Below are positions 2,116-6,552 of a DNA stretch of 64,000 nt, piece after piece. This DNA comes from Escherichia coli (GTDB lineage: Bacteria > Pseudomonadota > Gammaproteobacteria > Enterobacterales > Enterobacteriaceae). The DNA lies in assembly GCF_030013205.1 (NCBI RefSeq), contig NZ_CP122648.1. One strand, written 5' to 3'. The notes beneath the pieces were generated by a model. The model worked only from the letters and a program-made list of their open reading frames with translations, was not told the origin of the DNA and made no database searches. A program made the translations under genes and the position numbers. The number at the start of each line of letters is the position of its first letter. Within the stretch, counting starts at the first letter, position 1.

Positions 2116-3015
2116 CTAAACAGCACCTTTATACTTCAGCCTATCTATAAATAATGAGAATGCCGAGCCAGCATGTCGACGGTGTGGATAGTACAGGTGA
2201 TAACCGGGTAAATCTGGTGTGAATTTATCCAAAACACGTATCAGTTTTTATTCTTTAATAGCCCGCTCAACTTGATCATAAGGTAGATACGCCAATCCAT
2301 GCCCATCAATTGCAGCATCAATGATCAGGTCTATCGTATTCAGTAAAAGCTGACCTTCCATGCGAACACGAACTTCACGTCCACCGCGTATTAATCTCCA
2401 GCGATTTGCTGTACCCGATGTGGGAAGATACAAATTAATTGCCTGATGATCTATTAATTGTGACACTGACGTTGGAGCACTTCGACGAGAAAAATAATCC
2501 GGTGAGCCAACAATAGCCATTGGTATATCTGGCCCGATTCGAATGGCGATCATATCTTTATCCATCTCCCCACCCAGACGGACGCCTGCATCAAAACGTT
2601 CAGAAACGACATCGGTCAAACCATAATCAATGGTAAGCTGGATATCAATTTCAGGATGCGATTTCAGGAATGTGCGCATAGCTGGTAACAATATCGTTTT
2701 TGCTGCATGTTCTACAGTAGTAATACGTATTGTCCCGGATGGGCGGTTCTGCAGATCGCTCAGGGATGTCAGGGCAGAATCTATGTCATGCAACATAGGG
2801 CCAAGAACAGACAAAAGATGCTCGCCCGCTTCAGTGGGTACAACGCTGCGCGTGGTTCGCGTCAGAAGCCGCAATCCCAATCGTTCTTCTATACGGCGCA
2901 CTATCTGGCTTAAAGCTGACTGCGCCATGCTCAGGCGGGCTGCTGCGCGAGTGAAGCTACGCTCCTCTGCAACGACGACAAACGCCATCAGATCAGCGAT
3001 TTCTTCACGCTTCAT
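2116..3015 (-). pseudogene. pgrR: LysR-family regulator PgrR interrupted by an in-frame TAA at 2248-2250; expressed ORF 2248-3015 is 255 codons
   Basis: N-terminal LysR HTH (MKREEIADLMAFVVVAEERSFTRAAARL...). Translating past the TAA in the same frame gives KLIRVLDKFTPDLPGYHLYYPHRRHAGSAFSLFIDRLKYKGAV then TAG at 2116-2118, a typical LysR C-terminus. 255 + 1 + 43 = 299 codons, the length I recall for PgrR. Confidence 0.75.
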
Positions 3016-3039
3016 TCAGTATCTCCATACAATCTATTA

Positions 3040-3053
3040 ATCATTTAAATGAT
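3040..3053. promoter_or_regulatory. 14-bp perfect palindrome ATCATTTAAATGAT in the divergent pgrR/ycjY promoter region; candidate LysR-type (PgrR) operator
   Basis: Palindrome read from sequence. Flanked by a direct repeat GGTCTAATCA (3055-3064 and 3073-3082) and a second palindrome GTGATATCAC (3104-3113). Operator assignment is inference. Confidence 0.35.
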
Positions 3054-3152
3054 AGGTCTAATCATAATTTAGGGTCTAATCAACTTAATGATCAATATCT
3101 ATAGTGATATCACCAACCGTCAAAACGAACCGACAACTCCATGAGGAACGGA

Positions 3153-4073
3153 ATGATGAATAATAAAGTCAGCTTCACTAACAGCAATAATCCAACCATC
3201 TCTTTGTCTGCAGTGATCTATTTCCCTCCAAAATTTGATGAAACCCGTCAGTATCCGGCAATTGTGGTATCTCACCCAGGTGGGGGCGTTAAAGAGCAAA
3301 CGGCTGGAACCTATGCCAAAAAACTGGCGGAAAAGGGATTTGTCACTATTGCTTATGACGCATCTTATCAAGGTGAAAGCGGCGGCGAGCCGCGTCAGTT
3401 AGAAAACCCATACATTCGTACTGAAGACGTCAGTGCCGTGATTGATTACCTGACAACGCTTTCTTATGTCGACAATACCCGAATTGGTGCGATGGGAATT
3501 TGTGCCGGTGCAGGATATACAGCCAATGCTGCAATTCAGGATCGCCGCATCAAGGCCATCGGTACTGTTAGTGCGGTCAATATTGGTTCGATGTTCCGTA
3601 ATGGTTGGGAAAACAATGTGAAATCTATTGATGCCCTACCATACGTTGACGCGGGTTCAAACGCCCGAACCAGCGATATTAGTAGCGGAGAATACGCCAC
3701 TATGCCACTGGCACCAATGAAGGAGTCCGATGCGCCGAACGAAGAACTGCGTCAGGCCTGGGAGTATTACCACACCCCTCGCGCGCAGTATCCAACAGCA
3801 CCGGGTTACGCTACTTTGCGCAGCCTTAACCAGATTATTACCTATGATGCTTACCATATGGCGGAAGTGTACCTGACTCAGCCGATACAGATTGTGGCGG
3901 GCAGCCAGGCAGGGAGCAAATGGATGAGTGACGACCTGTACGATCGAGCATCAAGCCAGGATAAACGCTATCACATTGTTGAAGGCGCAAACCATATGGA
4001 TCTTTATGACGGCAAAGTCTATGTGGCTGAAGCAATTTCAGTATTAGCGCCGTTCTTTGAGGAAACTCTGTAA
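3153..4073 (+). CDS. ycjY: Alpha/beta-hydrolase fold protein (dienelactone-hydrolase-like)
   Basis: ORF 3141-4073; start placed at MMNNKV. Recognised as YcjY by sequence recall. Confidence 0.85.
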   Translation: MMNNKVSFTNSNNPTISLSAVIYFPPKFDETRQYPAIVVSHPGGGVKEQTAGTYAKKLAEKGFVTIAYDASYQGESGGEPRQLENPYIRTEDVSAVIDYLTTLSYVDNTRIGAMGICAGAGYTANAAIQDRRIKAIGTVSAVNIGSMFRNGWENNVKSIDALPYVDAGSNARTSDISSGEYATMPLAPMKESDAPNEELRQAWEYYHTPRAQYPTAPGYATLRSLNQIITYDAYHMAEVYLTQPIQIVAGSQAGSKWMSDDLYDRASSQDKRYHIVEGANHMDLYDGKVYVAEAISVLAPFFEETL

Positions 4074-4147
4074 TGAAACATATTCAAATCCGCAATAGTG
4101 ATATGGCCTGGCATATTACTGCCAATAATCTGGGAAAAGTTTCATGA
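4073..4147 (+). CDS. ymjD: 24-codon small ORF (MKHIQIRNSDMAWHITANNLGKVS) bridging ycjY and ymjC
   Basis: ATG overlaps the ycjY stop (TAATG) and its TGA overlaps the ymjC ATG (ATGA); GAGGAA 12 nt upstream. Below the ORF-track length cut-off. Gene name is tentative. Confidence 0.3.
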   Translation: MKHIQIRNSDMAWHITANNLGKVS

Positions 4148-4770
4148 AAAATGTACTGATTCTTGGTGCTGGCGGTCAGATAGCCCGCCATGTGATTAAT
4201 CAACTGGCAGATAAACAAACCATTAAACAAACTTTATTTGCCCGTCAGCCAGCAAAAATCCACAAACCCTATCCCACTAATAGCAAGATTATTATGGGGG
4301 ATGTACTGAATCATGCAGCACTGAAGCAGGCCATGCAGGGACAGGATGTTGTGTATGCCAACCTTACGGGGGAAGATTTAGATATTCAGGCAAATTCAGT
4401 GATCGCTGCGATGAAAGCCGGTGATGTTAAACGTCTGATCTTTGTTCTTTCCCTCGGTATTTATGATGAAGTTCCAGGAAAATTTGGCGAATGGAATAAT
4501 GCAGTTATTGGTGAGCCCCTAAAACCATTCCGCAGGGCTGCGGATGCAATTGAGGCTTCTGGACTGGAATATACAATTCTTCGCCCTGCCTGGCTGACTG
4601 ATGAAGATATTATTGATTATGAGCTTACCTCACGCAATGAACCATTCAAAGGTACGATCGTATCACGTAAGAGTGTCGCTGCATTAATTACAGATATCAT
4701 CGATAAACCTGAGAAACACATTGGTGAGAATATAGGCATCAATCAACCGGTGATGCTGCCAACTTACTGA
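4144..4770 (+). CDS. ymjC: NAD(P)-binding Rossmann-fold oxidoreductase; 3' end altered by IS1 insertion
   Basis: N-terminal MKNVLILGAGGQIARH is a GxGxxG dinucleotide-binding motif. The last 7 codons (PVMLPTY) and the stop are encoded by the IS1 left end; the original 3' end continues at 5526-5559. Confidence 0.6.
   Translation: MKNVLILGAGGQIARHVINQLADKQTIKQTLFARQPAKIHKPYPTNSKIIMGDVLNHAALKQAMQGQDVVYANLTGEDLDIQANSVIAAMKAGDVKRLIFVLSLGIYDEVPGKFGEWNNAVIGEPLKPFRRAADAIEASGLEYTILRPAWLTDEDIIDYELTSRNEPFKGTIVSRKSVAALITDIIDKPEKHIGENIGINQPVMLPTY
4740..4748. repeat. IS1 target-site duplication, left copy (CAATCAACC)
   Basis: Identical 9-mer immediately flanks both IS1 ends. Confidence 0.85.
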
Positions 4771-4803
4771 TTTAGTGTATGATGGTGTTTTTGAGGTGCT
4801 CCA

Positions 4804-5079
4804 GTGGCTTCTGTTTCTATCAGCTGTCCCTCCTGTTCAGCTACTGACGGGGTGGTGCGTAACGGCAAAAGCACCGCCGGACATCAGCGCTATCTCTGCT
4901 CTCACTGCCGTAAAACATGGCAACTACAGTTCACTTACGCCGCCTCTCAGCCCGGTACGCACCAGAAAATCATTGATATGGCCATGAATGGCGTCGGATG
5001 TCGCGCCAGTGCACGCATTATTGGCGTTGGCCTCAACACGATTTTCCGCCACTTAAAAAACTCAGGCCGCAGTCGGTAA
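4804..5079 (+). CDS. insA: IS1 InsA
   Basis: 91-aa ORF with zinc-finger-like CPSCS...CSHC N-terminus; matches recalled InsA. Confidence 0.9.
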
Positions 5080-5501
5080 CCTCGCGCATACAACCGGGCA
5101 GTGATGTGATTGTCTGCGCTGAAATGGACGAACAGTGGGGCTACGTCGGTGCTAAATCACGTCAGCGCTGGCTGTTTTACGCGTATGACAGGATGCGGAG
5201 GACGGTTGTGGCGCACGTCTTCGGTGAACGCACTCTGGCCACACTGGAGCGTCTTCTGAGCCTGCTGTCGGCCTTTGAGGTCGTGGTATGGATGACGGAT
5301 GGCTGGCCGCTGTATGAATCACGCCTGAAGGGAAAGCTGCACGTTATCAGCAAGCGTTATACTCAGCGCATTGAGCGGCATAACCTGAATCTGAGACAAC
5401 ATCTGGCAAGGCTGGGACGGAAGTCACTGTCGTTCTCAAAATCGGTGGAGCTGCATGACAAGGTCATCGGGCATTATCTGAACATAAAACACTATCAGTA
5501 A
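4998..5501 (+). CDS. insB: IS1 InsB (transposase catalytic part, made as an InsAB' fusion by -1 frameshift)
   Basis: 167-aa ORF overlapping insA in the -1 frame; matches recalled InsB. Confidence 0.85.
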
Positions 5502-5516
5502 GTTGGAGTCATTACC

Positions 5517-5525
5517 CAATCAACC
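5517..5525. repeat. IS1 target-site duplication, right copy (CAATCAACC)
   Basis: Identical to 4740-4748. Confidence 0.85.
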
Positions 5526-5577
5526 CGGGACTGATGGTGATAAGACATTCTTCATGTAAATCAATTATATAGCTACC

Positions 5578-5612
5578 ATCGTACTGTACTATGTGCAGTA
5601 CGATTTATTAAA
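5578..5612 (+). terminator. Hairpin (ATCGTACTG / CAGTACGAT, 9-bp stem) followed by a T-rich stretch, downstream of the original ymjC stop
   Basis: Inverted repeat read from sequence; lies about 20 nt past the displaced ymjC stop at 5557-5559. Confidence 0.4.
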
Positions 5613-5724
5613 CTTATTAAGGTGAACTGATCAATCAGATGCGATTAACATGTGTAGAACCAGTAAGAATAAAATACGCCATGTATATAACATTACGACA
5701 ATTCTAATATCTGCACATCAATGA

Positions 5725-5754
5725 AAATGCAAACAACTTCCATCAAAAAAGTGA
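5725..5754 (+). repeat. 30-bp exact direct repeat, copy B, upstream of mpaA
   Basis: Identical to 1837-1866. Confidence 0.85.
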
Positions 5755-5849
5755 TACAAGATCGATAACATAGCGTTGAAGAAAAGGATTTGATAATCCG
5801 CAAAATTTGCACAACACTGCCTGTAATACTTCCTGAACCAGAGACGATC

Positions 5850-6552
5850 ATGACCGTAACTCGCCCACGCGCCGAACGCGGCGCATTTCCGCCCGGAACA
5901 GAACATTACGGACGTTCATTATTGGGCGCGCCGTTAATCTGGTTTCCGGCCCCTGCAGCCAGTCACGAAAGTGGTTTGATTCTGGCTGGCACTCACGGTG
6001 ATGAAAACTCTTCGGTCGTCACGCTCTCCTGTGCTCTGCGGACGTTGACACCGTCTTTGCGCCGCCATCATGTGGTGCTGTGTGTGAATCCTGACGGCTG
6101 CCAGTTGGGGTTACGGGCCAATGCTAATGGTGTGGATTTAAACAGAAACTTTCCGGCGGCGAACTGGAAGGAAGGTGAAACCGTTTATCGCTGGAACAGC
6201 GCCGCTGAAGAACGTGATGTCGTATTGCTGACAGGTGACAAACCTGGCTCCGAACCTGAAACCCAGGCGCTGTGCCAGCTTATACACCGCATTCAACCCG
6301 CCTGGGTGGTCTCATTCCACGATCCGCTGGCCTGTATTGAAGATCCCAGACACAGCGAATTAGGCGAATGGCTGGCCCAGGCGTTTGAATTGCCTCTGGT
6401 AACCAGCGTCGGTTATGAAACGCCTGGCTCTTTCGGCAGTTGGTGTGCAGATCTCAACTTGCATTGCATCACCGCAGAGTTTCCGCCCATCTCCTCCGAC
6501 GAAGCCAGCGAAAAATATCTCTTTGCGATGGCAAACTTGCTGCGCTGGCATC

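Follow-up and report, generated by a model that had tools for sequence, protein, structure and literature searches.

The small open reading frame (ORF) considered here lies in a 64,000-nucleotide stretch of an Escherichia coli genome (contig NZ_CP122648.1; hereafter the window), where it is chained between ycjY, a gene for an alpha/beta hydrolase, and a gene for an SDR-family oxidoreductase. The features of this part of the window are as follows.

2116..3015, minus strand: pgrR, a divergent gene for a LysR-type repressor; its ORF ends at 2248 in the window.
3153..4073, plus strand: ycjY, alpha/beta hydrolase, 306 aa from the PGAP start (the mechanical ORF begins at 3141).
4059-4064, plus strand: GAGGAA, a Shine-Dalgarno-like element within the last ycjY codons (F-F-E-E-T-L).
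4073..4147, plus strand: 24-codon remnant ORF with the product MKHIQIRNSDMAWHITANNLGKVS (24 aa), a stop-loss allele of K-12 ymjD.
4144..4770, plus strand: ORF for an NAD(P)H-binding SDR-family oxidoreductase (208 aa; PF13460, E = 2.5e-54).
4749..5516, plus strand: IS1 (768 bp), in the 3' end of the SDR gene.

The frame that the original prediction had described, running for 24 codons from ATG to TGA between the ycjY stop and the start of ymjC, is present both in the sequence and in the list of ORFs, and its two neighbours had been named correctly, although the prediction had missed that the frame itself bears the name ymjD in K-12. Its ATG (4073-4075) shares A4073 with the ycjY TAA (4071-4073), giving TAATG at 4071-4075, and its TGA (4145-4147) overlaps the ATG of the SDR gene (4144-4146), giving ATGA at 4144-4147. 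The GAGGAA element is equally real, but had been placed slightly too close: instead of lying 12 nt upstream, it begins 14 nt 5' of the ATG and leaves a spacer of 8 nt, which is well placed for a Shine-Dalgarno sequence. As read from the sequence, the SDR start is preceded by a weak Shine-Dalgarno only (GGGA, 4131-4134), and a search of 4000-4200 returned no promoter-like or terminator-like site, and thus no internal SDR promoter. The ycjY product matches the Pfam families Peptidase_S15, Hydrolase_4, DLH and Abhydrolase_1, while the SDR ORF is the full-length orthologue of the K-12 pseudogene ymjC, with its final residues replaced through the IS1 insertion. The 24-aa peptide itself is hydrophilic, lacks a membrane-spanning segment and matched no Pfam family.

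When the query region was compared with 5,426 complete E. coli genomes, it matched many of the strains in two separate parts, which pointed to a second hydrolase gene at the locus, here called hydrolase-2. In E. coli HB-Coli0 an intact 310-aa alpha/beta hydrolase (WP_000680602.1) begins at the same TAATG as the small ORF, as does the O157:H7 copy, and in both loci the hydrolase-2 gene ends 17 nt 5' of the annotated SDR start. Because the intact protein shares 42% identity with YcjY across 299 aa and matches the same alpha/beta hydrolase families in Pfam, hydrolase-2 is, by these measures, a real gene and a paralog of its upstream neighbour ycjY. Both ends of this gene, as it stands in relatives, have homologous counterparts in the window that remain in frame with it, on either side of a deletion.

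4073..4127, plus strand: 5' hydrolase-2 remnant, 55 nt, comprising codons 1-18 and the first base of codon 19.
4127..4128, plus strand: deletion junction, GCCAATA / ATCTGGGA; the missing 867 nt correspond to L004 2679-3545 in HB-Coli0.
4128..4135, plus strand: 3' hydrolase-2 remnant, the last 8 coding nt in the same frame (AT, then the last two codons, CTG GGA, Leu-Gly).
4136..4138, plus strand: former stop codon of hydrolase-2 and ymjD, TAA in the intact gene and in K-12, AAA (Lys22) here.

Window positions 4073-4127 are identical to HB-Coli0 (L004 2624-2678) at 54 of 55 positions. The deletion is in frame, 867 nt being a multiple of three and equal to 289 codons, and K-12, B2-type strains and Escherichia sp. 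E1V33 all share its junction, which shows no evident microhomology. Elsewhere in the species, the O157:H7 strain Z563 (L003 2624-3554) carries a hydrolase-2 gene that is present but frameshifted, open for 122 codons and annotated as a pseudogene, which represents a third, independent route to the loss of hydrolase-2.

In K-12 the junction is identical and the TAA is kept, yielding a 21-aa product, MKHIQIRNSDMDWHIAANNLG. The curated record of the K-12 genome (NC_000913.3) annotates this frame as ymjD (b4673, YP_009518774.1, 'uncharacterized protein YmjD') at 1390868..1390933, with a 1-nt overlap with ycjY (1390933..1391853) and a stop codon that falls 5 nt before the ymjC start. EcoGene is reported to have described ymjD as an 'expressed deletion pseudogene fusion remnant', and tagged YmjD was reportedly detected in K-12 by Hemm and colleagues in 2008. 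Exact peptide look-up of the 21-aa form returned 'Protein YmjD' (UniProt YMJD_ECOLI), and the exact 24-aa peptide of the window has already been deposited as a hypothetical E. coli protein, on 620 contigs; in RefSeq genomes, PGAP leaves both the 21- and the 24-codon remnants unannotated. Relative to the ancestral GGA TAA GTT TCA TGA, the window carries a T-to-A substitution at 4136, and its frame runs on through K-V-S to the TGA at 4145-4147, while K-12 keeps the TAA and has a G-to-T substitution at 4139. The window ORF thus agrees with ymjD in position and in identity and junction, and differs from it in lacking a 21-codon frame that ends at TAA. At the level of sequence, it is an allele of the ymjD locus, separated from K-12 ymjD by a one-substitution allelic difference and not a different locus, and the feature is therefore already known: it is ymjD, here in the form of a common stop-loss allele. 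The gene has been assigned to a transcription unit, ycjY-ymjDC, with a constitutive sigma-70 promoter (PMC3946193), and ycjY-ymjDC-mpaA is included in the PgrR regulon, where it is listed as 'ycjY-ymfDC-mpaA' (PMC5934670), 'ymfDC' evidently standing for ymjDC.

The polarity of this change was established by scanning species-representative genomes with the intact hydrolase-2 protein, followed by tblastn of its neighbours. A divergent pgrR, ycjY and hydrolase-2, often followed by an SDR gene, were found in Serratia, Citrobacter, Pseudocitrobacter and Shimwellia at 85-88% protein identity, and the same cluster was found in many Rhizobiales and other bacteria at 60-81% protein identity, with a spacer of ~100 nt between ycjY and hydrolase-2 in Rhizobiales. 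In the enterobacterial loci, ycjY ends and hydrolase-2 begins within a shared TAATG, and in four of the five a GAGGAG lies in the last ycjY codons, the exception being Serratia sp. PL17 with AAAGGA; the Shine-Dalgarno is kept as GAGGAG or GAGGAA in Citrobacter, Pseudocitrobacter, Shimwellia and Serratia grimesii. Since the cluster is found across enterobacterial genera and in Rhizobiales with hydrolase-2 as a full-length YcjY paralog, the intact arrangement with its TAATG overlap, and in most loci its Shine-Dalgarno, is on this comparison ancestral, and the small ORF is derived from it by deletion. As a separate observation, a pgrR/ycjY/hydrolase-2 cassette, sometimes with the SDR gene, is common to Enterobacterales, Rhizobiales and other Alphaproteobacteria, and the ~75-85% protein identity of YcjY and hydrolase-2 across Enterobacterales and Alphaproteobacteria suggests that the whole pgrR-ycjY-hydrolase-2 cluster may have been transferred horizontally between these groups.

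Within E. coli, the ymjD locus has three common states: the 310-aa gene, the 21-codon remnant and the 24-codon remnant. The full hydrolase-2 gene (at least 80% covered) is present in 1,272 of the 5,426 complete genomes and the deletion allele in about 3,700-3,900 of them. A window-like 24-codon junction is carried by 1,520 genomes, most of them one mismatch from the window; the exact 65-mer of the window occurs in 85 of the 5,426, and the exact K-12 65-mer in 843. All of the 24-codon strains that were fetched (ABU 83972, FDAARGOS_1259, SCU-124 and Escherichia sp. E1V33) have Ala16, not Thr16. Among the rows sampled, the 24-codon allele mostly sits beside an intact SDR gene and the 21-codon allele beside the truncated ymjC. 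This pairing of the 24-codon allele with an intact SDR gene is not strict, since Escherichia sp. E1V33 (L042) has the allele together with the SDR truncation breakpoint of K-12, and SCU-124 (L047) has it together with an independent SDR truncation; the ATGA overlap is thus retained even where the gene downstream is no longer intact. E1V33 is unusual in another respect: it is ~3% divergent in ycjY, yet shares the hydrolase-2 junction and the K-12 SDR breakpoint while carrying the AAA allele, a combination that implies either recombination inside the locus or ancient polymorphisms that the lineages have in common.

The small ORF bears no sign of purifying selection on its peptide in the ten deletion alleles compared, in which replacements outnumber synonymous changes and divergence is not reduced, a comparison of low power with too few sites for dN/dS. 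Its five variable sites comprise one synonymous change, A12D, A16T, the stop/Lys difference and one site immediately behind the former stop. The window differs from K-12 at 4 of 75 positions in the ORF and at 22 of 1,061 in the flanking sequence (one-sided Fisher test, p = 0.087; low power). The original prediction had looked to conservation of the frame among relatives for support, and had named its interruption in close relatives as part of the outcome that would count against it. What the genomes hold is the latter: depending on the strain, the frame is 21, 24 or 310 codons long or is interrupted by IS1, which is not the pattern of a conserved small protein, although the statistical power of the comparison is low.

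The interruptions belong to a wider pattern of insertion at this locus. Strains YZ22PE106 and 181.1 carry IS1 within the remnant ORF, behind codons 7 and 15, respectively; in HCP30S3_I2 the element follows closely on the TAA, and in COL60J it sits within the intact hydrolase-2 gene. The IS1 of the window is flanked by a 9-bp target duplication, CAATCAACC, at 4740-4748 and 5517-5525, and is missing from the SDR gene of the otherwise near-identical strain CFSAN018748. With independent insertions at five positions in five strains, IS1 has repeatedly targeted the ~1 kb between ycjY and mpaA. At pgrR, the window differs from CFSAN018748 at nt 2250 (A versus T), which creates the nonsense codon K256* (2248-2250) and removes the last 44 residues; should K256* abolish PgrR function, repression of the ycjY operon might be lifted in this strain. 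The locus is thus decaying further in the window, where the SDR gene has lost its 3' end to IS1 and pgrR is shortened by a nonsense codon.

The N-terminus of the SDR gene also differs between the alleles. Both deletion alleles lack 12 nt (ATGAGAAATATT) that are present in the intact-cluster strains (L004 3557-3585 versus window 4139-4160), where they are accompanied by an upstream in-frame ATG. Comparison with the sequence V-K-N-I-I-Q-K-V-L-I-L-G of Citrobacter and Pseudocitrobacter suggests that this upstream ATG (M-R-N-I-M-K-N-V...) may be the ancestral SDR start. It likewise suggests that the true start in the intact-cluster strains would lie four codons 5' of the PGAP call and 5 nt after the hydrolase-2 stop. 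The 12 nt would then be four N-terminal SDR codons, lost between near-repeats.

Taken together, these comparisons lead us to a reading to which we assign a probability of roughly 0.9, namely that the 24-codon ORF is the remnant of an in-frame deletion followed by a stop-loss, a product of ordinary gene decay that is passively translated and has no selected role. The ancestral operon comprised ycjY, a second alpha/beta hydrolase gene (310 aa, the YcjY paralog) and the SDR oxidoreductase gene, followed in E. coli by mpaA, with hydrolase-2 beginning at the TAATG overlap behind a GAGGAR Shine-Dalgarno. An in-frame deletion of 867 nt fused the first 55 nt of hydrolase-2 to its last 8 coding nt and stop codon, producing the 21-codon ymjD, and a later T-to-A change in the lineage of the window converted TAA to AAA, adding K-V-S up to a TGA that happens to overlap the SDR start. 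Since the start codon and the Shine-Dalgarno come from the ancestral full-length gene, the stop-start arrangement is explained by descent and is no chance coincidence.

The same history bears on whether the remnant is read by ribosomes. As the ancestral initiation region has stayed intact, ribosomes that complete ycjY, or that bind GAGGAA, probably still initiate at 4073 and would make a short, probably functionless peptide. Those that terminate on the SDR start codon could reinitiate there, and since that start has only the weak GGGA upstream, the remnant may passively maintain SDR translation, relaying it from ycjY without selection for that role. The case for translation of the small ORF draws on its conserved initiation signals and on the reported detection of tagged YmjD in K-12, and the remnant is most likely passively translated.

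Of the other readings, the one that survives best, though we consider it unlikely, is that the remnant has become a selected coupling ORF, in which the stop-loss was favoured for putting TGA on the SDR start and so restoring tight termination-reinitiation after the deletion. On this view, to which the same low probability applies, the change from TAA to AAA would have restored efficient translation to an SDR gene that the loss of its neighbour had left with a weak Shine-Dalgarno; if true, it would be a case in nature of a pseudogene remnant co-opted as a coupling uORF. In its favour, the ATGA overlap exists only in the AAA allele, the SDR start has just GGGA (4131-4134) before it, and among the sampled rows the AAA allele mostly stands beside an intact SDR gene, in all 25 listed rows of one search as well as in rows H96 and H98-H104, while the TAA allele stands beside the truncated ymjC in rows H81-H95. 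This association is, however, explained equally well by linkage within ~200 bp and is to be expected from shared ancestry, and the 24-codon allele also occurs with a truncated SDR gene in E1V33 and SCU-124, where there is no intact gene to couple to. The K-12 allele, moreover, stops merely 5 nt before the same ATG, a distance still within the range of reinitiation, and the window's own SDR gene is interrupted by IS1.

It is slightly less probable still that the frame is an untranslated chance product, an inert spacer passed over by ribosomes. In its favour, PGAP leaves the ORF uncalled in RefSeq genomes, but the start codon, the overlap with the ycjY stop and the Shine-Dalgarno are those of a real cross-genus gene, unchanged here, and K-12 curators accept ymjD as a gene. 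Nor is an unusually stable fold apparent that could mask the start: the RNA of 4050-4180 is predicted to fold no more stably than shuffled sequences do (z = -0.24), even though the minimum free energy fold pairs the bases just after the small-ORF ATG with the SDR start region.

Least probable of all is a functional small protein, a YmjD peptide with its own role and hence a new gene born from the deletion remnant; ymjD is protein-coding in the K-12 annotation and 'Protein YmjD' in UniProt, the ORF is open in most of the deletion-allele genomes sampled and the tagged protein has reportedly been seen in K-12, but the length of the peptide differs by lineage (21 or 24 aa), it carries the A12D and A16T replacements with divergence not lower than that of the flanks, IS1 interrupts it in YZ22PE106 and 181.1, the 1,272 intact-gene genomes have no separate ORF, and the hydrophilic peptide has neither a membrane-spanning segment nor a Pfam family. 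A leader peptide, an attenuator and an sRNA were also considered and found unsupported, as no Rfam family was matched in 2900-6000, the fold is not unusual and 4000-4200 holds no terminator-like site. The suggestion that the frame might be a coupling ORF or a small protein thus stands in part, in that it corresponds to an annotated small-protein gene in K-12 and has the anatomy of a coupled start, but a dedicated or selected role in coupling is unsupported.

In light of the preferred reading, decay of hydrolase-2 followed by stop-loss, a seemingly designed chaining of starts and stops can come about through the decay of a gene: once an in-frame deletion within the gene has left its old initiation site at the head of a very short ORF, one stop-loss is enough to produce an exact ATGA overlap. 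When genomes are scanned, short 'coupled' ORFs should accordingly be compared with relatives that may hold the full-length gene before they are named as small-protein candidates. The importance of the locus extends little beyond annotation, as it represents the known decay of ymjD and no new coupling device.

The window ORF can be set beside three known systems. With intact hydrolase-2 (e.g. WP_000680602.1) it shares the start codon, the Shine-Dalgarno, the ycjY overlap, the first 18 codons and the last two, but the 289 internal codons, including the whole catalytic domain, are gone, and no hydrolase is possible. With K-12 ymjD it shares the locus directly after ycjY, the 1-nt stop/start overlap, the junction, 19 of 21 residues (A versus D at residue 12 and T versus A at residue 16, window versus K-12) and the start of the downstream gene. 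It differs in that K-12 has 21 codons ending in TAA, where the window has AAA and 24 codons ending in a TGA that overlaps the downstream ATG, and in that the gene downstream is a truncated ymjC in K-12 and a near-full-length SDR gene clipped by IS1 in the window. The third system is translational coupling of the kind seen in the trp operon, where termination-reinitiation at overlapping AUGA or UAAUG stop/start codons is established. The small ORF opens with one of these overlaps, UAAUG, and closes with the other, AUGA (TAATG and ATGA in the DNA), within one operon and on a transcript listed as ycjY-ymjDC. In contrast to coupling of the trp-operon type, however, the overlaps here are by-products of a deletion and a stop-loss, and not conserved features of two functional genes.
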